This document shows, one piece after another, positions 2,199 to 21,281 of a stretch of DNA of 37,395 nucleotides; position 1 is the first letter of the stretch, and each line of letters opens with the position of its first letter. A program made the translations under genes and the position numbers. The stretch comes from a virus. Its lineage: Duplodnaviria > Heunggongvirae > Uroviricota > Caudoviricetes. Location: positions 1 through 37,395 of IMG/VR virus record IMGVR_UViG_3300045988_031779. One strand, written 5' to 3'. Under the pieces are notes generated by a model. That model was not told the DNA's origin. It worked only from the letters and a program-made list of their open reading frames with translations, and ran no database searches.

Positions 2199-2354
2199 AT
2201 GCGTTAAGCACAGCTATATCCGAATTATGGTGGGCTGGGCAGGGGTCCGAAAGGACGCCGGTACCACTTAGGCCGGTACGCCAACCTTGTCCAGTTCACC
2301 ACCAGTAATTGGCGTTGCGGTGGTGATTAAAATCACTAAGTGGAGATAACCACC

Positions 2355-3065
2355 ATGGCTAATGCTCAAACTTCCATCTTCAAATTTGAATCTGTTAACC
2401 CTATCCGTTCCATCATTATCGATGGCCAACCATGGTTTGTAGCCCAAGACGTTTGTAGTGCGCTGCGTATCCAAAACGTCACCCAAGCACTTGAAAAACT
2501 GGATGATGATGAAAGGTCTATGTTCAACATAGGGCATGAACATCGTGCAATTTTTGACAGCCGAGTAAAAGAGATCAACATCATCTCCGAGTCAGGCCTC
2601 TACACACTGATCCTCCGCTGCCGCGACGCAGTGACACCAGGCACTATCCCCTACCGCTTTCGTAAATGGGTTACAGGTGAGGTTCTTCCTCAGATCCGCC
2701 GCACCGGAAGCTACATTAAAAACTCGCTCCCGCAGGAAGAACGCATAAAGATGGTTGCCGACCAGGTAGCCAACGCCACAGCATCAGCAGTGATGCAGGC
2801 AATGAAGATAGAGAACAAAACCTACAGCGCCCCACTGAAGCCCGGCTACCGCAGCCTGATTCATTCGCCGTCTGGTGTTCTCGGCCTGACGGAGCACTCA
2901 CTGCTGATGAATCTGCTGAACCAGTTACAGGACGACGGGCACGACGTATCGGGCGCGGCGGCGGAGCTGACCACCATGTTCTGCTACATCGTCGGTGTGA
3001 GCAAATGCCTGCGTGATATCCAGACCCACGCGGAGTACATCAACGACAAAGCAGGGTTCTTCTGA
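2355..3065 (+). CDS. Bro-N domain antirepressor with Ant/KilA-C-type C-terminal domain, 236 aa
   Basis: ATG at 2355 with GGAG 9 nt upstream (track ORF begins at GTG 2340 in the same frame). N-terminus IFKFESVNPIRSIIIDGQPWFVAQDVCSALRIQN matches the Bro-N signature; C-terminal domain is paralogous to 949..1206. Confidence 0.7.
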   Translation: MANAQTSIFKFESVNPIRSIIIDGQPWFVAQDVCSALRIQNVTQALEKLDDDERSMFNIGHEHRAIFDSRVKEINIISESGLYTLILRCRDAVTPGTIPYRFRKWVTGEVLPQIRRTGSYIKNSLPQEERIKMVADQVANATASAVMQAMKIENKTYSAPLKPGYRSLIHSPSGVLGLTEHSLLMNLLNQLQDDGHDVSGAAAELTTMFCYIVGVSKCLRDIQTHAEYINDKAGFF

Positions 3066-3178: not shown

Positions 3179-3388
3179 ATGGGATTTTGGTTCGCTCGTA
3201 CAAAAACGAGGGATAATGCACCCAGCCCTCAGGCAAAAAATGCAGAAGTTCCGGCGTCAGCGCAGGTTAACAAGCGTGGTGGAGTATATATCTCATCACA
3301 GCAAATTTCTGAGCTTCCTGAGGTTAAAGAGATGCGTCGTCTCGCTGCTGCAATTGTTAAACAGGATCTTGCCACTGTAAGGAAATAG
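3179..3388 (+). CDS. Hypothetical small protein, 69 aa
   Basis: ATG at 3179 with strong GAGGAGGA upstream; ordinary GC content; stop overlaps the GTG start of the next gene (TAGTG). Confidence 0.45.
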   Translation: MGFWFARTKTRDNAPSPQAKNAEVPASAQVNKRGGVYISSQQISELPEVKEMRRLAAAIVKQDLATVRK

Positions 3389-4251
3389 TGTTGTTAGCTC
3401 TTCTAATTATCCCCATTCTGGTTAGTGGTTATATTATGATAACCGCTAACCAGTATCATTATTTCCGTTTATACCGACATGAAGGCCAGCTTCTTTATAT
3501 GAAAGTAGCTGCATTAGGTACATATTGCCTTGTTGCTTCAGTAATAATTGCCGCATTTATAAAATGTAAATATCCTGATTTTCACCTAGTTCACGACATG
3601 GTGGAAACTTTTAATGTAACGTCAAAACCAGAAACAGATAGAATTTACATGTGGCTACTTCTTCTGTCAGTCACATCAATTTGCTTCTCTTTGTGTTATG
3701 TATCTTTTGTTTGGCTAAAAGATCTTCTTTTAGGTTGTTTTTATAAACGTGATATTTATGACAAAATATCAGAGGCAATGAAAGCTAGAGTATTGCGAAA
3801 AACGTACTCCCAGGGTTCTTTAGATTTGCTATTGCTTGATGCAATCGAATCAGATCCTAAGAAACCAATGTTAATTACTTTATCATCAAATAAAGTATAC
3901 GTTGGAATAATAAATGGTTCTGGTGAGCCAACGGAAAATCAAGGGCCACACCAACACATATCTTTTGTTCCTTTAATGTCAGGGTACAGAAACAAAGAAA
4001 ATTTATCTGTTACATTTACAAACGCTTACCCAGGTGAAATCCAAATTAAGCGCAGTGCTGCGATAAAAGGGATAAGCAAAAAGAAAGTTCAAGGTCTAGA
4101 AATTATGGTATCTATAGACGAAATAAGTCATATATCATGGTTTGACTTTGAAGTATATAAGGCAACCAATAACAAAGTAGAAACAAAGGGTCATGTTGTT
4201 AATGTGACCAAAAATGGTCGCAACATATACTACAGAAGTGGCAGGAAATAA
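3388..4251 (+). CDS. Polytopic membrane protein (about 3 predicted TM helices plus ~170-aa soluble C-terminal domain), 287 aa, AT-rich cargo
   Basis: GTG start overlapping the upstream stop, GGAA 5 nt upstream. Hydrophobic segments LLALLIIPILVSGYIMI, VAALGTYCLVASVIIAAFI, MWLLLLSVTSICFSLCYVSFVW. Sequence visibly AT-rich compared with flanking phage genes (by eye, not computed). No family recognised. Confidence 0.6.
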   Translation: MLLALLIIPILVSGYIMITANQYHYFRLYRHEGQLLYMKVAALGTYCLVASVIIAAFIKCKYPDFHLVHDMVETFNVTSKPETDRIYMWLLLLSVTSICFSLCYVSFVWLKDLLLGCFYKRDIYDKISEAMKARVLRKTYSQGSLDLLLLDAIESDPKKPMLITLSSNKVYVGIINGSGEPTENQGPHQHISFVPLMSGYRNKENLSVTFTNAYPGEIQIKRSAAIKGISKKKVQGLEIMVSIDEISHISWFDFEVYKATNNKVETKGHVVNVTKNGRNIYYRSGRK

Positions 4252-4267: not shown

Positions 4268-4780
4268 GTGGCTTATATGGATAATACTATCTTAGGCGCA
4301 TTGATAGGTGCAGTTATTGCTATAGTTTCTACTTACATAAGTGCAAGGCAAGGATACAAAAACAGCATAAAATTAGAGCGCGAAAAAATATTAAGAGATA
4401 AACGTGAGCAATTATTCACAAATTGCATACTTACTGAAAAAGTCATAGCTTCAAACAAAATGGCTATTCTCAATTTTGTTAACAATGCCAGTTACCACTC
4501 TGATAGTAAATTTGACACATCAAAAGTCAATCCGTTGCAAACGATGGAAATGCTAATAAACATATACCTTCCTGAGTATAAAAAAGACTTACAAGAACTC
4601 AATAATATGTATAACAAGTTTCACAATTACTACTCTCAATATACATGTGCACATACCTTCAAAAATATGCCTGATAATGAGAAGTTGAAGTTTATTGAGG
4701 AAGCTGATTTTTATGCAAAAAAGATATATGGCAAACTTAATGATATTAAGGACAAGATATCATTTAACTCAATAGTATAA
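4268..4780 (+). CDS. Membrane-anchored protein (one N-terminal TM helix, Lys/Asn-rich soluble domain), 170 aa, AT-rich cargo
   Basis: ATG at 4268, 16 nt after the previous stop, with AGGTGG upstream. TM helix ILGALIGAVIAIVSTYI. No family recognised. Confidence 0.6.
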   Translation: MAYMDNTILGALIGAVIAIVSTYISARQGYKNSIKLEREKILRDKREQLFTNCILTEKVIASNKMAILNFVNNASYHSDSKFDTSKVNPLQTMEMLINIYLPEYKKDLQELNNMYNKFHNYYSQYTCAHTFKNMPDNEKLKFIEEADFYAKKIYGKLNDIKDKISFNSIV

Positions 4781-4855
4781 CAGCGATACTGCCGCTGACG
4801 GCTCCCGCTGCGGTGGGCGTTCTGCGGATTCCCGCCCGGGCGGCGGTGGAATTCG

Positions 4856-5740
4856 TTAAAAACAAGGCCGCGAAAGCGGCCTGTTTGATAACTGTGCAGT
4901 TTTCGCTGATCGATTTTCAGCTCTAAATTCAAGAACCGTTTCAATATTTCTTTCCTTCAGCATATCAATAACATTTTTATTCATTTGACTATCACTGGTT
5001 AATAACTGGTAAACGTCGCTTCTCTCTTTATCAGAGTTTTCTTTAACAGCTGCTTTGCATGCCAAATGCTTATTGAAATTTTCTACATCGCTAGTACAGG
5101 AATTTACGGCTGCTGATGAAATATCAGACGCTGAAGAAACACCATCATCCAAACGTTTTATAGCATTTTCTATACATGAGTTAAGGGAATAAACGACAAC
5201 TGAGCGATACCCTTCAGACGCACACCATTCTAAATTTCTTGAAGGATCGAGTGGTTTTACTTCGCTGGATTGAATTAACTTGTCAAAAACTGACTTATAT
5301 TCAATCTGTTTTTTATCTATAGCCCATACTTCAGTAGCTGATTTATAATTCCCCGTATGCCTATTAACATCAAATCCATGTTTTATAAGCAAATCTGCCC
5401 ATGAAAGATTTATTGATTCATTGTTATGAGGCCATTTTCCTGTCAGAACCGCCCCCATAGACCCCATATATCCGCCATATGATGGTATAGCACCATGGCT
5501 CAGTAACTTCTCAGCAACCACAGGGCAATTAATTACATAAGAGGCGTAAAGCCCATTCCATAAAGCCCCTCTATAGTAATCGCCACGATTAGGTTCTTTT
5601 AAGTCGATAGCCTTTGATAATTGTTCACACGTTTTGCATGCATCAAAGTTATCCTTATTGCATTGCAATGAACTGGCAGCTGTAGGATTTACAGAGACTA
5701 TTGAAAGCACTATGCCAAAAAACAAATTTATTTTTTTCAT
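4856..5740 (-). CDS. Secreted protein with Sec-type signal peptide, AT-rich; weak ankyrin-repeat-like motifs, 294 aa
   Basis: ATG at 5740, 1 nt after the stop of the 1129-aa virion protein gene. N-terminus MKKINLFFGIVLSIVSVNPTAASS is signal-peptide-like; ADLLIKHGFDVN and AEKLLSHGA resemble ankyrin repeat ends (weak). Confidence 0.55.
   Translation of the reverse strand: MKKINLFFGIVLSIVSVNPTAASSLQCNKDNFDACKTCEQLSKAIDLKEPNRGDYYRGALWNGLYASYVINCPVVAEKLLSHGAIPSYGGYMGSMGAVLTGKWPHNNESINLSWADLLIKHGFDVNRHTGNYKSATEVWAIDKKQIEYKSVFDKLIQSSEVKPLDPSRNLEWCASEGYRSVVVYSLNSCIENAIKRLDDGVSSASDISSAAVNSCTSDVENFNKHLACKAAVKENSDKERSDVYQLLTSDSQMNKNVIDMLKERNIETVLEFRAENRSAKTAQLSNRPLSRPCF
4866..4883. terminator. Bidirectional intrinsic terminator candidate (AGGCCGC-gaaa-GCGGCCT)
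   Basis: 7-bp GC stem with GAAA loop, flanked by AAAAACA upstream and GTTTGAT downstream, at the convergence of the plus-strand module and the minus-strand late operon; overlaps the last codons of 4856..5740. Confidence 0.5.
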
Positions 5741-5741
5741 C

Positions 5742-8700
5742 CTATTTCATCTGCTCTTCAACTTTATTTAGTAATGGTGATATCGCCCACAGGTTCTGAA
5801 AAGGTAGCATTTTACGGACCGCGTGGGTTTGCTGGCTGTCAAATTCTCCGTTAAGTACACCATTCGCAACCGTCGCGGCATCACCGCCAAGATCAAAGGT
5901 AGGACCAAGTAAAGCACCAATAGCATTACGACTCTGAAACCTTGATACCGGAGGCGCACCAAACATCGCGCCAAGACCAAACCTACCACCGCTTATGTTC
6001 TCAACGGTATTCAGCGGCTCAGAGAGCCAGCCAAGCATTCCGCCCCGGTCGATCCCCTCTTTCACAAGGTTATTCCAGCTGTAGTCAATATCGCGACCGC
6101 TTAACTTCTGTTTCATCATATAGACCATTGAGCCAAGCGCAATCGTGCCAAGCGCACCAAGATAGAATGCAGCATCGCCCTGCTGGATACCAGATACCAG
6201 CACCCTGTTATGCTGTGCGAAGATAAACGTTTTGAACTGCGTGATCATCTTCCAGCCTTCTTTACTAAAAAACAGCGGTGTATCACCTACGCCAGGCGTT
6301 ACAATCACTGAGTCTACATCTTTCAGCACTGCAGACTGGAAAATCTCTCTAGCGAAACGGTCATCCCACAGATGACTATGCCCGGTTAACAGCCCGTCCA
6401 TATCCTCTCCGTGCTTCCCGAATTGCTCCCCGATTCGACGCAGAACATCTTCATTGATGCCGACCTGTGCCATCTTCCGCATTTCACTTTTGGAGAGCGT
6501 GCCACCAGCAGAAACTTGGCGAGCCGCGTCAAGTATCCTCGACTGCACTATCATCCCAGACCATGATTTAAGTGCGCTGTTCCACTGATTCATCAGCGTC
6601 CAGTTACCGAATTTCTGCGTCATCCAGTTCAGACCTCGCTCAGCGGCGCTTCTCCGGCTATAGGGGTCAGTAAGATCCGCTATAGCCTTTGTACGCGTAG
6701 ACAGGACATAATCAAGCCCAACGGCCATTTCTCGCAAATCCCTGGTTGCAATTTTCACTGAGTCCATATTTTTAAGCATGCTTACCATTGGTCCGAGAGA
6801 TTTTCTCAGGCCATGCTGCATCATCGGTCGCATCAGATCAGTTGCAGCGGAGACAGTCATTCCACCAAGCAAACGGAGGAAGTTAATATTCCTAGCAACT
6901 CGCCCGGCACGAACAAAGAAACTGCGTGGATCTTGAGGTGCACCGTAAGTACCAAGCAGTCGATCACGCATAGCCGTAATATCCCTAATATCAGCCTCCC
7001 GTTGCTTCTCAAGAACTGCACGTCGTTTAGGTGTTTTAGCCTCTTTTATTAGCCGGGTATATTCCTCACTAACCTGACGGATTTGCTCCCCCATATCTTT
7101 ACGGCCAAACTGCGCAGTCAGCTCAATTTCTGGTGCCACCTGCCGGAGATAACTTTCCATGATGTAGTTAACATCTGATTCAAGAAAATCTTCTATACGC
7201 TCATCAGGAATAAGCAGCGTTCTGCTTTTAGTGAAACCAGCCCGACCAACGAGTCTCTCTGGGATAATATCGGCTGGTACAAGCCCGGAAGGTGCGCCTA
7301 TTATTTTATTCACGATCTCGTCAGCAGCGTCCTCTGCTTCCTCTCGGGATAGAGGCTCCATCTGCTTCAGTGCTCGTTCGCGGCTTGCATTCAGCCTTGT
7401 GGTTGAATTTGCCCGTTTTTGCAGTCGGCGAAGCTCAGAACGATATTTCCGTGGATTATCCAGCAACTCCATATGGCGCTGATAGACAGGAAGCTCACTC
7501 TTTGCCTGCGCTATATCATCAAGGCGTGTTTTAAGGTCAGAGCTTTCTTTCATCATTCTTGCCTGAAGTTTTTCTGATGAAGTCTCGGCCAACTCTTTTT
7601 CTATTCTTGTAAGACGCGCCTGTGTGTCAGTCTCCTGAGATATAAGCTTATTTCGTTTATCCAGTTCTTCCATGAGTAGAATTTTTTTACCAGACCATTT
7701 CTCCGCTTCAGCGATTTCACTAGCGAGAGCATCAGCGCGCGGTGCCGATTCCTCTGCAGTTTTTAGCAATGAATTTATCCTTTCAATTCGCTGACCTGCC
7801 TTGTCAGCACCTTTGGCACTAATCCCTTGTATCCAGTTGGCAATTCGCCCTCTGAATTCAGTGCGGTCGGAAAGTATCTTATCGAACTTATAAATGCGGG
7901 GAAGATAACTTTTCGCCGTCACGACATCGATATCCTCAGGAAGGATCCCCAGTTCCTGCATACGGGCTTTTGTGATCTCGAAAATGGGGCGGATTCTGGC
8001 GGCTGCTTGTGAAACCTCAGGAATATCACTCTGATCACCACGGCGCATGGCCATGCCAACAGCTTCATTGAAATCAATAAAGTTCATCCTCTTCACGCCG
8101 CGGGCGCTAACAGATTTGCTGTACTGCTGATAAGCATCACGAGTGGCTTCCATCTGCTTATAAAGCATGGCGTCGTATTGCTTAATCTTAGTCTCGACTG
8201 CCGTAAACGTAGCCAACCCCTCATCATTTTTGGCGAAGAAATAGTTATTTTCGGCAAGCTGCTGGTTAATCTGACGGGAGACAAGAGATGGTGATTGCGC
8301 CAAGCGGCCAGCAGGAGTGACACTCAACGTTTTGTTAGCAAGTCCAAGTCCAGCGAGCTGTTCCTGATCGAGTGTGGTATTGAAAACCTGAGCTGCACCA
8401 ATGCTTTGAGGAGAATCCATACCTCGCAAATGATTACCTACTGAGTTAACCACTGCCTCGCGCGCGCTAGGTCCAGCAAGTAGCTGTGCACCAGCACCAA
8501 GGATCCCACCAACGAGAGCATCAACAACAACGTTCGATACGCTCTCCATCGGTGAGCGAGCTTCCTGAGTGGCCTGTAATGCGGCTTCTGATACTCCCCC
8601 ACCAGCAGCATTCGCCAGGGCAAAACGCCCTGCCGTCTCAGCAATACTTCCTCCACGCGCTACCGCCCCTACAGGGATGAACATTGCAGCCACATTAACC

Positions 8701-9131
8701 GGGTCTATCATTCCCATTGCTAAGCTTGAAATAGTACCAGCACCACCCATTTCAGATAGATATTCTCTATCTGTTCTTTGCTTATCGATTCGATGTTTAA
8801 TTGCCATTGTTTCTTCATGCGAACCGGAGTTGATAAACGAATCTGCAAAATCTTCATAGCCTTTAATATCTGCTGCATCGTTATCAAATGGGTTATATCC
8901 TTCAACCCTGTCAAACTGACTGAAAGGAGCACTGGCAATAAAGCTACCCAGCGTGTTATCTATACGAAATGCTGCTTGTCTAGACCTTTGAACGCGTTGA
9001 TCACTGGTAAATGGGTTCACAGCAGAAAGCAAAGAAGGTGTTTCCATATAGAAATTACTGTCATCAGGTGCTGCTATTTGCTGAATATCCTCGCCAAGCA
9101 ACTCTTTAGGATCCTGTTCATATATCGGCAT
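5742..9131 (-). CDS. Large internal virion/ejection protein (T7 gp16-like position), 1129 aa
   Basis: Size and position at the end of a tightly coupled structural operon just before the tailspike; long Gly/Ala-rich and coiled-coil-like segments. Assignment by gene order only. Confidence 0.55.
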   Translation of the reverse strand: MPIYEQDPKELLGEDIQQIAAPDDSNFYMETPSLLSAVNPFTSDQRVQRSRQAAFRIDNTLGSFIASAPFSQFDRVEGYNPFDNDAADIKGYEDFADSFINSGSHEETMAIKHRIDKQRTDREYLSEMGGAGTISSLAMGMIDPVNVAAMFIPVGAVARGGSIAETAGRFALANAAGGGVSEAALQATQEARSPMESVSNVVVDALVGGILGAGAQLLAGPSAREAVVNSVGNHLRGMDSPQSIGAAQVFNTTLDQEQLAGLGLANKTLSVTPAGRLAQSPSLVSRQINQQLAENNYFFAKNDEGLATFTAVETKIKQYDAMLYKQMEATRDAYQQYSKSVSARGVKRMNFIDFNEAVGMAMRRGDQSDIPEVSQAAARIRPIFEITKARMQELGILPEDIDVVTAKSYLPRIYKFDKILSDRTEFRGRIANWIQGISAKGADKAGQRIERINSLLKTAEESAPRADALASEIAEAEKWSGKKILLMEELDKRNKLISQETDTQARLTRIEKELAETSSEKLQARMMKESSDLKTRLDDIAQAKSELPVYQRHMELLDNPRKYRSELRRLQKRANSTTRLNASRERALKQMEPLSREEAEDAADEIVNKIIGAPSGLVPADIIPERLVGRAGFTKSRTLLIPDERIEDFLESDVNYIMESYLRQVAPEIELTAQFGRKDMGEQIRQVSEEYTRLIKEAKTPKRRAVLEKQREADIRDITAMRDRLLGTYGAPQDPRSFFVRAGRVARNINFLRLLGGMTVSAATDLMRPMMQHGLRKSLGPMVSMLKNMDSVKIATRDLREMAVGLDYVLSTRTKAIADLTDPYSRRSAAERGLNWMTQKFGNWTLMNQWNSALKSWSGMIVQSRILDAARQVSAGGTLSKSEMRKMAQVGINEDVLRRIGEQFGKHGEDMDGLLTGHSHLWDDRFAREIFQSAVLKDVDSVIVTPGVGDTPLFFSKEGWKMITQFKTFIFAQHNRVLVSGIQQGDAAFYLGALGTIALGSMVYMMKQKLSGRDIDYSWNNLVKEGIDRGGMLGWLSEPLNTVENISGGRFGLGAMFGAPPVSRFQSRNAIGALLGPTFDLGGDAATVANGVLNGEFDSQQTHAVRKMLPFQNLWAISPLLNKVEEQMK

Positions 9132-11878
9132 TATTTGCCCCCTGCGTATATATTGCTCGGAAGGTAATTGGCTGAACCATAACCGAATGGTTTGGTCAGA
9201 TCTGGAGGAGTATATCCATCTTTATTGCTGAACTGCGGCAGCGGATTGCCTTCTCTCCGCACTCTAGCCTCATCAACACGCTGTTGCTGGAACTGAATGG
9301 TTTGCCTGTACATTGGAGATGTCAGCTGATCCGGCTTGAAACGAACAGGGAGACCATTTTCTCCAATATAATTTCTCGGTTCTATCGCTCCGTTTGCGTC
9401 AGGCTGTAAAACCATAACAGCATAACTCCTATCCCTTGCCGTAAGGCCATCAGAAACAAGTATTAAGTCCGTATCACTGCGAGGACCGCCAAAGGATTTT
9501 GATTTAAGCTCGCGTTTTTCCTGCTCCCACTGCCCCTGTATCCAGTTACCAGCACCATTATTTACTCCGTACAATGCCTCAGGTGCATACTTCATAACCT
9601 CTGCTTTGCCATTAACCGTAGAAACTCCCCAAGTGGTTCTGATCATGGCATTGGTCATTTTCTCAGCCTGTTCTGCATCGCCACCTGTCTGTACAAAGTT
9701 AGCATCGTAAATTGTCTGGTAATCTCGCTGATAGGCCGCATTTGATTTTCCTGGATCGGTAATATCCGGAGACCACGAACCAAAGGAAGTCAGACTGCTG
9801 GCGTTATTTTGTGCAGCAGTTGCCCTCGCCGCGACATATTTTTTGTCTCGCATGGCAGTGGAAAGCATCTGTTTCATTCGGTCATCCTGTTGGAACACCT
9901 GGCTGTAAGCCATATCAACAGCCTTATCCTCCGGCACGCCAGCGCGGGAATAATCGTAAACCTTGCCGTAAAATGCCATCGTACTTTTATCAAGTGTTGC
10001 CGCTGCCGCCGGATTATTATCGAATAACTGACCGTAGAATTTTGCCATCGGGACAACCAGCGCAGGATCTCTTGATGTTGCTCCACTGTTAAGCATTGTT
10101 TTAACCTGAGTTGGTATCATGCCGCTTTTAGTTGTGACGGTGACCAGTGTATTGATGCTCTGCGGATCAGATATGGAAAACGAAGGCGCGATATCCTGCG
10201 CGAAATAACGGTCTACCGCTGCCTGATTGTTTTTGTCGTTCGGGTCCAGCGGGAAGTTATTTTGCATTGAAGACACGAACCTGTTTCTTCCCTGCTGAAT
10301 CTCCCACTCCCTATCCATCTCTTTAAATTTGGCCTGCATTTTCTCCCAGCGTTGCTGGTTAGCTGCAAATCCAGGAGCGTTTGGATCCTGTGGACGTAAA
10401 CGTTCAAGAATGTCTTGTCGTCCTTCTGGAGTGAGGTCTTTAGCGGCACCAATGACACCTCCATATTGTATCTGCGCCTGCATATCCTTCCACTTCATAG
10501 CGCCAATGCGCGGACCATTGGCCCGGATAAAATCGTCCTCAGAAGGTAACTGCTCAGGTTTCAATCCTTCATCAAGGGCTGAATATGCATCTTTAACTAC
10601 GGTGCTAAGCTGGTCCGCATACTGCTGGCGGTACTGATTTCTCAGCTCATTAGCCTGCCTCAATGCCTGTATTTGCATTTGAGGGCTCATAGCATCAAAT
10701 GCCGCATTGCCCGTATAACGCTTAGGTGAATCAAGGTTAGTTAGACCAAGGGCTGCCGAGATACCAGTTTCAAGCTGTTCGGTGCTATAAGGCATACTGC
10801 CATTTTCGTGTTTAATAATCCCAGCACATAAAGCAGCTAGTGTCTTTGGGTTAGAGATATCAAGCTGATCATTCTCCCCAACACCAAGCTCACCACACAA
10901 TGCCCTAATATAAGCATCAGTATTATTACCATCACTAGCCGGAGCATAACGATTAACAATCTCGCTAACGGTGTCATAGCCTTGACGCTGGTAAGACAAC
11001 ATATTTTTACCCAACGCGCGGATTCCATGCTCAGGGGTAGCAAACGTTGCAAAACGTCCATCGCTACCGATCTGACCTTCCCACGGGTTAGATTTGCTCG
11101 CTTCAATATTACCAGGATTATTATTACGTAAACCACGAGCATCCAATGAATTACCATGTGACATTGCACGGCTCACACCGTCAAGATCCCCTGGCTCTCC
11201 ATTAACCTGAAGAAACTCGTTGTATTTTTGAGCGATATTTCCTATCCATGCTTGCTGCCCCATTTGTTCCTTGAGCTGAGTTTTCTGCTGAACACGCCAC
11301 TCATCAGGAAGCCCATGCGCATCAGCGTATTGATCAATAGATTCAAATCGCTGCTTGGCTAAATCGACAAATGCTTGGTTATCGCTATATAGCCCCGCAG
11401 ACTGAGTGACAGCCAATGCATTTCCTGACAAATACGTTTGATCTTGGAATTGCTGAAACTGCCCAACTTCATATCGACGTGCCTGATTGTAATAAGACTG
11501 CATAGACTGCTGGAGTTGAAAGGATAATTTATTCCTTTCCTCACTTTCAGGAATTGAGCCTAATAATGCCTGAGCCCTTTCCTGCATATTTTTCATAACA
11601 GCGTCACTCTGACCAAGAGCGTTTTTACCCTGTTTAGAAATCAGCCCATTTTCTGGGTTGTTAATCTGGTCATCTGCAAATTGGTTAAATTGCAGTAACG
11701 CCTCCTGGGCCATAGCAACATTCGCTTTCTGCCTGGCTTCACCATATGCCACCGCATACTGATCTGCGACATTCGCCAGCACCTGACCTGCTTGAGGAAC
11801 ATCGAAGGTTTGAAAACCACCGGTTTGCACACCACGACTTTGCACCTGGCGTCCGGATGTAGTAGGAACAACAGGCAT
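9131..11878 (-). CDS. Internal virion/core protein (T7 gp15-like position), 915 aa
   Basis: 1-nt overlap with flanking genes. Contains a conserved-looking segment LRNNNPGNIEASKSNPWEGQ...GIRALGKNMLSYQRQGYDTVSEIVNRYAP of unknown function. Assignment by order and size. Confidence 0.55.
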   Translation of the reverse strand: MPVVPTTSGRQVQSRGVQTGGFQTFDVPQAGQVLANVADQYAVAYGEARQKANVAMAQEALLQFNQFADDQINNPENGLISKQGKNALGQSDAVMKNMQERAQALLGSIPESEERNKLSFQLQQSMQSYYNQARRYEVGQFQQFQDQTYLSGNALAVTQSAGLYSDNQAFVDLAKQRFESIDQYADAHGLPDEWRVQQKTQLKEQMGQQAWIGNIAQKYNEFLQVNGEPGDLDGVSRAMSHGNSLDARGLRNNNPGNIEASKSNPWEGQIGSDGRFATFATPEHGIRALGKNMLSYQRQGYDTVSEIVNRYAPASDGNNTDAYIRALCGELGVGENDQLDISNPKTLAALCAGIIKHENGSMPYSTEQLETGISAALGLTNLDSPKRYTGNAAFDAMSPQMQIQALRQANELRNQYRQQYADQLSTVVKDAYSALDEGLKPEQLPSEDDFIRANGPRIGAMKWKDMQAQIQYGGVIGAAKDLTPEGRQDILERLRPQDPNAPGFAANQQRWEKMQAKFKEMDREWEIQQGRNRFVSSMQNNFPLDPNDKNNQAAVDRYFAQDIAPSFSISDPQSINTLVTVTTKSGMIPTQVKTMLNSGATSRDPALVVPMAKFYGQLFDNNPAAAATLDKSTMAFYGKVYDYSRAGVPEDKAVDMAYSQVFQQDDRMKQMLSTAMRDKKYVAARATAAQNNASSLTSFGSWSPDITDPGKSNAAYQRDYQTIYDANFVQTGGDAEQAEKMTNAMIRTTWGVSTVNGKAEVMKYAPEALYGVNNGAGNWIQGQWEQEKRELKSKSFGGPRSDTDLILVSDGLTARDRSYAVMVLQPDANGAIEPRNYIGENGLPVRFKPDQLTSPMYRQTIQFQQQRVDEARVRREGNPLPQFSNKDGYTPPDLTKPFGYGSANYLPSNIYAGGK

Positions 11879-21204: not shown

Positions 21205-21281
21205 GTGGCATTAGCTCAGCTGGACAGAGCAACCGCTTTCTAAGCGGTTGGTCGCAGGTTCGAATCCTGCATGCCACGCCA
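21205..21281 (+). tRNA. tRNA-Arg (anticodon UCU)
   Basis: 77-nt cloverleaf folded by hand: 7-bp acceptor stem GTGGCAT/ATGCCAC, D arm GCTC/GAGC, anticodon stem ACCGC/GCGGT with loop TTTCTAA (anticodon TCT), T arm GCAGG-TTCGAAT-CCTGC, discriminator G, encoded CCA. Resembles enterobacterial argU-type tRNAs. Confidence 0.85.

Follow-up and report, generated by a model that had tools for sequence, protein, structure and literature searches.

A secreted two-domain protein gene beside the ejection genes of a temperate T7-like phage, with a possible role against incoming phage lysins

The stretch of DNA analysed here, called the window throughout, covers positions 1 to 37,395 of IMG/VR virus record IMGVR_UViG_3300045988_031779 and represents a temperate phage whose morphogenesis genes are T7-like, on a contig of 37.4 kb. 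Our subject is the minus-strand open reading frame (ORF) at 4856..5740, which encodes a secreted protein of two domains. Along the minus strand, a gene for an 823-amino-acid (aa) tail protein is followed by genes for products of 154 aa, 191 aa, 915 aa and 1129 aa, and then by this ORF. The 154-aa and 191-aa products are both assigned to PHROG families named 'internal virion protein', and the RefSeq homologue of the latter is a 'virion core protein, T7 gp14 family'. The gene, the parts of its product and the neighbouring features on which the argument depends are the following.

4856..5740, minus strand: gene for the secreted two-domain protein, 294 aa here and 283 aa in its usual form (ORF translation; PHROG_6118, E=2e-200).
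5669..5740, minus strand: Sec-type signal peptide, residues ~1-24, MKKINLFFGIVLSIVSVNPTAA followed by SS (hydrophobicity and charge heuristic; alignment).
5261..5668, minus strand: N-terminal domain, residues ~25-160, divergent ankyrin-like with about three repeats; cysteines C27, C35, C38 and C72.
4892..5248, minus strand: C-terminal helical domain, residues ~165-283, predicted local distance difference test (pLDDT) >90; cysteines C173, C189, C215 and C228 (profile search, AlphaFold2 model).
4889..4891, minus strand: lost stop codon; every relative compared has TGA, the window TTA (change at base 4890; alignment of the DNA with that of three relatives).
4856..4882, minus strand: intrinsic terminator with a 7-bp GC-rich stem (4865-4882), a 4-nucleotide (nt) loop and a T-run (terminator scan; RNA fold).
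5742..9131, minus strand: gp16-like internal virion (ejection) protein, 1129 aa (PHROG_342 'internal virion protein', E=9e-235).
9131..11878, minus strand: gp15-like ejected core protein, 915 aa, with a muralytic domain (PHROG_1044, PHROG_873 and PHROG_7182, 'tail injection transglycosylase').
10727..11158, minus strand: Enc34-type (PHA02564) peptidoglycan glycosidase domain, residues ~241-384 of the 915-aa protein (PDB matches, local hidden Markov model (HMM)).

The match to PHROG_6118, a family of no known function, runs over the full length of the usual form (residues 1-283 on profile positions 1-283 of 283), and searches of Pfam, NCBIfam and PADLOC with the protein gave no match. The ATG lies at 5740-5738, and exactly 1 nt separates the ORF from the 1129-aa gene, whose stop codon ends at 5742. 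An initial annotation of this DNA had described an AT-rich gene at the end of the virion gene operon, starting 1 nt after the 1129-aa core protein gene. The coordinates bear out the spacing, and the operon-end position stands, but the strand needed correcting, since the gene lies on the minus strand. The base composition is as described: the ORF has a GC content of 0.372 (0.288 at third codon positions, GC3), about 10 points under its neighbours (0.481 and 0.468 in the two core protein genes upstream, 0.482 in the window as a whole), and a deficit of 9-17 points recurs in all six related loci that were measured (L002, L005, L036, L040, L042 and L043, which are Morganella, Serratia and IMG/VR contigs).

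Among 5.8 billion proteins, 22 homologue clusters were found, all of 270-283 aa and derived from E. coli, Klebsiella, Serratia, Morganella and Providencia. Because of these clusters, and because dN/dS is only 0.09-0.16 when the E. coli and Klebsiella-type lineages are compared, we take this to be a real gene under purifying selection. The slot directly 3′ of the gp16-like gene is kept in E. coli, Klebsiella-type, Serratia and Morganella phages at 40-89% identity (58% in Serratia, 40% in Morganella), and every relative retrieved from IMG/VR or metagenomes carries the gene at this same place. Its synonymous divergence (dS) is 0.4-0.8, compared with 1.2-1.5 for the flanking core protein genes (window 4889-5740 against L036 and L057), which hints either at more recent exchange of a cassette or at constraint from AT-rich codon use. 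The gene is present in just one of 50,697 deposited phage genomes. In the related Klebsiella phage ST512-KPC3phi13.3 (L075 7380-7994), the slot after the gp16-like gene holds an unrelated 204-aa gene whose product has no signal peptide and no match in Pfam or PADLOC. This phage has the same Enc34-type domain in its gp15-like protein and lacks the ankyrin-like gene, which is thus dispensable for this type of virion. One related phage filling the position otherwise, and conservation being deep, we regard the position as an accessory slot with an old occupant. The suggestion in the initial annotation that the gene is lysogenic-conversion cargo is accordingly supported by its AT-richness, the variable slot and the terminator that follows it, but not in the sense of a casual or recent passenger, for its place is kept down to 40% identity.

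The terminator (RNA fold −20.7 kcal/mol, z = −2.6), whose counterpart in phage phiV10 is annotated 'terminator', closes the core-gene transcription unit. A simple consensus scan of the minus strand over 4884-6800 (~1.9 kb) found no sigma-70-like promoter, a crude search by which absence is not proven, and reading the upstream sequence by eye gave one TTGACA only, with a 22-nt spacer. The gene thus seems to share a transcript with the late genes and to come close to translational coupling with them. The stop-codon loss in the window adds 11 residues (LSNRPLSRPCF), a ninth cysteine among them, and carries the ORF across the terminator hairpin; this 294-aa form occurs on one contig only, compared with at least 885 contigs for the 283-aa form.

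A Sec signal peptide had been proposed from the window alone, and the family upholds it, the expected pattern being present in 37 of 38 members. The call is heuristic: these members have a basic N terminus and a hydrophobic segment 10 or more residues long, its mean Kyte-Doolittle value 2.05 or higher, and the remaining member (P0044), which has no anchoring cysteine motif, was not scored. Small residues precede the first invariant cysteine (TAA/SS in the window), and the cleavage site is of the AXA type used by signal peptidase I (SPase I). A lipoprotein reading was rejected, since a lipobox ahead of the first cysteine is absent from every family member. Each domain has four invariant cysteines, eight in all, which fits an oxidising compartment, and four predicted disulfide bonds would stabilise the exported protein. 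With so conserved a Sec-type signal the protein is unlikely to be part of the virion, in agreement with the earlier remark that it is not a standard virion component.

The mature part, first described as a single domain of about 270 aa, consists of two separate modules according to both the AlphaFold2 model and profile searches. The model is all-helical and in two parts (mean pLDDT 79), with about three helix pairs at residues 53-158. In the profile searches each domain is also found alone, the N-terminal one as secreted proteins of 160-175 aa and the C-terminal one as secreted proteins of ~110-155 aa. The N-terminal domain is marked by the motifs GDYYRGALWNGLY, LLxxGAxPxxGG and KWPHN, and the C-terminal domain by C..I..LDDGVSxASDI...V..C. 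Among solved structures, none is recognisably related to the C-terminal domain. The resemblance to ankyrins is confined to the N-terminal half (residues ~50-160): the family profile matches a genuine 20-repeat ankyrin protein at E=1e-9, and one homologue record in UniRef is named 'ankyrin repeat domain-containing'.

A clue to function comes from the company that the N-terminal domain keeps. The 915-aa gp15-like protein carries a glycosidase domain with the motifs RNNNPGNI ... RYAP ... NNTDAY ... IIKHENGS, which matches 9vvp_L ('Gp29') at E=7e-36 and the Enc34 endolysin 7q47 at E=1.5e-16. The latter is the solved structure of a peptidoglycan glycosidase of family PHA02564, and counterparts of Enc34 Glu131, Tyr95 and Trp79 are present in the phage domain. 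In every locus of the phage lineage that reaches far enough upstream, this domain lies ~5 kb upstream of the ankyrin-like gene. Stand-alone relatives of the N-terminal domain are found next to the same kind of enzyme. In the metagenomic loci L010 and L011, the stand-alone gene overlaps by 1 nt the start of a gene for a 178-aa glycosidase (RNNNPGNI...RWAP...NNTAAY...HENG) that has no signal peptide. The order is reversed in L013, from a Bacteriovoracia metagenome-assembled genome (MAG), where a gene for a 219-aa protein with the glycosidase motif lies directly upstream with a 4-nt overlap. In L074 a glycosidase ORF directly 3′ of the N-domain gene probably begins ~7 nt past its stop codon, and a type VI secretion system (T6SS) gene, tssH, is 1.3 kb away (TIGR03345, 1274 bits, over the curated cut-off). 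Finally, in the L012 prophage the ankyrin-like gene follows the tail genes, and a tape measure protein encoded 3.4 kb upstream ends in an Enc34-type domain.

Altogether an Enc34-type neighbour occurs in four of about 10 informative stand-alone contexts, and a further one has a weakly T4-lysozyme-like gene nearby. The exact glycosidase motif was matched in at least 600 stretches among 2.9 million viral contigs, and this rarity makes chance adjacency in three unrelated genomes, and in two gene orders, very unlikely; a rough estimate, assuming at most a few copies per genome, puts its probability (P) below 1e-6. The relatives in L010, L013 and L074 share a layout in which a secreted partner is encoded beside a co-oriented glycosidase that lacks a signal peptide. 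The window gene does not itself adjoin a glycosidase gene, its presumed partner being the domain ~5 kb upstream inside the virion protein. A simple neighbour-joining tree places the phage copy in the part of the family without cytochrome neighbours, alongside all four Enc34-linked members.

Contexts of the stand-alone C-terminal domain are mostly too short to inform. In one prophage (L113 2382-2843) such a homologue lies directly downstream of a CI-type repressor gene (HTH_3 and Peptidase_S24 domains) and opposite a Cro-like gene, a position typical of exclusion genes expressed in lysogens.

We tentatively propose that the window protein is a periplasmic immunity or exclusion protein that would neutralise the lysin of an incoming ejectosome, a reading drawn from gene neighbourhoods to which we give a probability of about 0.37. 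As an accessory protein rather than a virion part, it would be exported by Sec to the periplasm and held stable there by its four predicted disulfide bonds, with the N-terminal ankyrin-like module perhaps acting as a protein-binding domain. The glycosidase of the gp15-like core protein would have to cut the wall from the periplasmic side during DNA injection. Waiting in the periplasm of a cell already occupied by the phage, the protein could bind and neutralise what an incoming phage of the same type brings, either its lysin domain or the ejectosome as it assembles, and the outcome would be superinfection exclusion or protection from lysis-from-without. The favoured target is an Enc34-type glycosidase because the stand-alone relatives are paired with this enzyme and the phage's own gp15-like protein carries it. 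We infer from the neighbourhoods that the lysin would be physically bound, and inhibited rather than activated; the exclusion phenotype, the time of expression (late lytic, in the lysogen, or both) and the role of the C-terminal domain are likewise put forward by inference. The neighbourhoods seem to favour anti-lysin immunity or exclusion over a generic lysogenic-conversion factor, and both the CI-adjacent relative of the C-terminal domain and the related phage without the gene fit an accessory, defence-type role. The earlier suggestion of an action on the cell envelope would then be narrowed to a protein partner, an Enc34-type peptidoglycan glycosidase.

Several observations weigh against this proposal. 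The case for binding and inhibition is drawn wholly from gene neighbourhood, and about six of the 10 informative stand-alone contexts have no Enc34-type neighbour. Neither domain of the protein was found at 80 viral Enc34-type loci (mostly endolysins), so that the pairing is not a general one. Expression may be late only, given the 1-nt gap and the lack of a detected promoter, and for exclusion the late lytic phase would be unusual timing. T7 that lacks the ejected muralytic activity of gp16 is only delayed in infection under some conditions, so pure inhibition of the enzyme might exclude weakly. In the Morganella-type relatives L002 (12247-12723) and L042, the endolysin of the holin cassette is itself Enc34-type, that of L002 being 42% identical to the gp15-like lysin domain of the same phage. 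The protein would have to be specific, since an unspecific inhibitor made late would counter the phage's own lysis. The ankyrin assignment of the putative binding module is weak as well. Neither the protein nor three stand-alone relatives match any Pfam family at E≤1, Ank (PF00023/PF12796) included, and a distant relative (P0054) has a sub-threshold Ank match at E=0.013. Alignment with hhalign to the consensus repeat covers 14 columns only, at the LL..GxDVN repeat end, with a probability of 50%. Foldseek against PDB and BFVD gave nothing significant (E≥0.05), and a sequence search of PDB gave matches to designed ankyrin repeat proteins (DARPins) at E~1 only. The closest solved structures are nevertheless ankyrins, the bacterial periplasmic 7ubz and 7kb2 included. 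Of the ankyrin repeats suggested initially, what survives is thus a weak resemblance in the N-terminal half, and the domain is best called ankyrin-like but divergent.

A further difficulty is that the partners of the family vary. In a distant alphaproteobacterial clade the N-terminal domain is always accompanied by a small cytochrome c and a NOX-like oxidase (EF-hand/ferric-reductase), which suggests that the partner there is a periplasmic redox protein unrelated to cell-wall enzymes. In the alphaproteobacterial loci L076-L082 the N-domain gene (~6001-6500) lies 5-40 nt downstream of the cytochrome c gene. In four marine metagenome loci (L069, L070, L072 and L073) the domain is found inside a secreted protein of 458-479 aa with MORN repeats. 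Because the neighbours vary in this way, the domain may be a general periplasmic binding scaffold whose partner differs by clade. For the phage copy the Enc34 link could then be irrelevant, and the partner a host envelope or redox protein, or one concerned with lysis timing, virulence or colonisation. We consider this only a little less probable than the role proposed above: the cytochrome and MORN contexts, the several contexts without a lysin, a C-terminal domain that has neither fold relatives nor a known function, and the presence of the prophage in extraintestinal pathogenic and avian pathogenic E. coli (ExPEC and APEC) strains such as IHE3034 and APEC O18 are all in its favour. Yet it leaves unexplained the conserved place beside the ejection protein genes, it does not sit well with the grouping of the phage copy among the Enc34-linked members rather than the cytochrome-linked ones, and direct action on eukaryotic hosts is improbable for a protein with no secretion signal beyond Sec.

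The resemblance of the stand-alone relatives to effector-immunity pairs, one of them near tssH, also raises the possibility that the gene is an orphan immunity determinant, with which the prophage would protect its host from Enc34-type effectors of rival bacteria delivered by a T6SS or a similar system. A T6SS effector with an Enc34-like N-terminal domain is accompanied by signal-peptide immunity proteins (PMC13340143), and an AT-rich, cargo-like gene in a variable slot would suit such a function. On the other side, the gene is fixed beside core genes that carry the same enzyme domain in four or more genera, an indication that the target belongs to the enzyme family of the phage itself; no promoter of its own for expression in the lysogen was found, and there are no T6SS genes nearby in the window. 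As the explanation of the phage gene we hold orphan immunity to be distinctly improbable, although it is compatible with the lysin-blocking reading and does not exclude it. The two could be joined in a wider conjecture, itself improbable though a little less so, of a disulfide-stabilised, periplasmic, ankyrin-like immunity family common to bacterial effector-immunity pairs and temperate phages and aimed in both at Enc34-type glycosidases, in which phages would have captured the module, fused it to a second secreted module and placed it beside the ejection genes for use against rival virions.

The apparent co-transcription with the late genes (1-nt gap, no promoter) could instead point to a regulator of lysis timing, one that restrains periplasmic muralytic activity until the holin is triggered or shields the cell from lysis-from-without by progeny phage. 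That the Morganella-type endolysin is Enc34-type would agree with this. The lysis cassette of the window phage, by contrast, is separated from the gene by several kb that hold the accessory region and the tailspike gene, and a local HMM did not detect the E. coli phage endolysin as Enc34-type; the variant that invokes protection from progeny overlaps the lysin-neutralising role proposed above. We regard a timing function as quite unlikely, slightly more so than orphan immunity. A virion or assembly component, whether a fourth ejected protein with a membrane-insertion segment or a chaperone of the gp16-like protein, is very improbable: the gene does follow the gp14-, gp15- and gp16-like genes directly, with its 1-nt gap, and ejected proteins of T7-like phages insert into membranes, but the product has a classic cleavable signal-peptide layout and eight invariant cysteines, each of its domains also exists by itself as a secreted protein outside phage contexts, the gene is missing from a related phage whose core protein set is the same, and its GC content is strongly atypical of the structural genes.

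Escherichia phage EC.W1-9 is 99% identical to the window over the region around the ORF. Of 5,426 complete E. coli genomes, 106 (~2%) carry the prophage region, IHE3034 and APEC O18 among them; its carriers include ExPEC and APEC strains of sequence type 95 (ST95). In the prophage of IHE3034, a K1 strain (L008 1-2513), the same T7-like backbone is combined with an endosialidase-type tail protein, and the corresponding product is a 'phage tail protein' or an 'eliminase' in other strains; as the tail proteins differ among strains, the receptor-binding module is swapped between prophages. We also considered whether the 1129-aa gene might encode a tailspike in an epsilon15-like layout and rejected this, because the product is gp16-like and the matches to epsilon15-like phages are confined to a 105-bp junction.

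This junction, at 4780-4884, is 96-99% identical to eight otherwise unmatched Escherichia phage records, TL-2011b, phiv142-3, ZX5 and HEMP4 among them, and consists of a 3′ fragment of a 'transmembrane anchored protein' gene together with the terminator. Only the 48-bp terminator part is shared, at ~94%, with phiV10 and others. The segment looks like a shared recombination junction that bounds the accessory region, whose opposite-strand genes lie beyond the terminator. Two convergent plus-strand genes of GC 0.31-0.35 at 3388-4251 and 4268-4780, assigned to PHROG_3630 and PHROG_36918, end at the terminator from the opposite side; they have no significant match in Pfam, NCBIfam or PADLOC and are further cargo. 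Farther into the accessory region, Rfam identifies on the plus strand an isrK Hfq-binding small RNA (sRNA) at 2122-2198 and a C4 antisense RNA at 2223-2306, directly 5′ of an Ant-type anti-repressor gene (2340-3065), an arrangement that resembles the P1/P7-style antisense-controlled anti-repressor module. Inside the phage genome there is also a tRNA-Arg gene (anticodon TCT) at 21205-21281 on the plus strand.

Should the proposed role be correct, T4 Spackle would no longer be, to our knowledge, the sole example of a phage that stops superinfection by inhibiting the cell-wall hydrolase of the incoming virion; the window protein would be the second. Lysin-directed superinfection exclusion would then have been reached from an unrelated fold, against a different enzyme family and in a temperate T7-like phage. 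PHROG_6118 would gain a function, as would two so far unannotated families of small secreted proteins, and interbacterial immunity proteins would be linked with phage exclusion. If the family were indeed shared in the wider sense considered above, lysogens might be shielded both from related phages and from the Enc34-type toxins of competitors. As the prophage is found in 106 of the 5,426 E. coli genomes, it could influence which hosts are open to therapeutic podoviruses with Enc34-type domains in their ejection proteins. Even if the proposal about the lysin is wrong, pathogenic E. coli and Klebsiella carry in this gene a prophage-encoded protein that is conserved and exported.

Like the window gene, late-operon morons and exclusion genes, for example HK97 gp15 and lambda lom and bor, are extra, compositionally distinct genes that end a structural operon, with a terminator after them and a slot that varies among related phages. 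Unlike these, the window gene has no detected promoter of its own, lies 1 nt from the gene upstream and keeps its place over deep divergence rather than occurring sporadically. The closest functional parallel to the proposed role is T4 Spackle (gp61.3), the periplasmic inhibitor of the gp5 tail lysozyme (PMC7677548), which is similarly phage-encoded, exported by a signal peptide, small and helical, and serves superinfection exclusion against an incoming lysin. Spackle is nonetheless an early gene of a virulent myovirus, whereas the window gene stands last in the core-gene operon of a podovirus that is T7-like and temperate; its proposed target is of the Enc34/PHA02564 type rather than a T4-type lysozyme, its function is putative, and no relation to the Spackle family was found in sequence or fold.

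A second group of parallels consists of bacterial proteins that protect against enzymes acting in the periplasm. Bd3460 of Bdellovibrio is an ankyrin self-protection protein against peptidoglycan DD-endopeptidases (PMC4686830), and the pairing of an ankyrin-type binding protein with a wall hydrolase that acts in the periplasm recalls the arrangement seen here; one stand-alone relative of the N-terminal domain (L013) even comes from a Bacteriovoracia MAG. Bd3460 inhibits peptidases, not glycosidases, and has canonical ankyrin repeats, whereas the N-terminal domain of the window protein is too divergent for Pfam, has two predicted disulfides and is joined to an extra C-terminal domain. Tli, the ankyrin-repeat immunity protein of the Enterobacter cloacae T6SS lipase effector Tle (PDB 7ubz; PMC11470151), has 12% sequence identity to the window protein; its partner is a phospholipase, not a glycosidase, and the phage copy lies outside any T6SS locus. 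The T6SS effector with an Enc34-like N-terminal domain, which is from Stenotrophomonas, acts in the periplasm and is accompanied by signal-peptide immunity proteins (PMC13340143). In gene layout, the closest counterparts of the window protein would appear to be the periplasmic immunity proteins of effector-immunity pairs.

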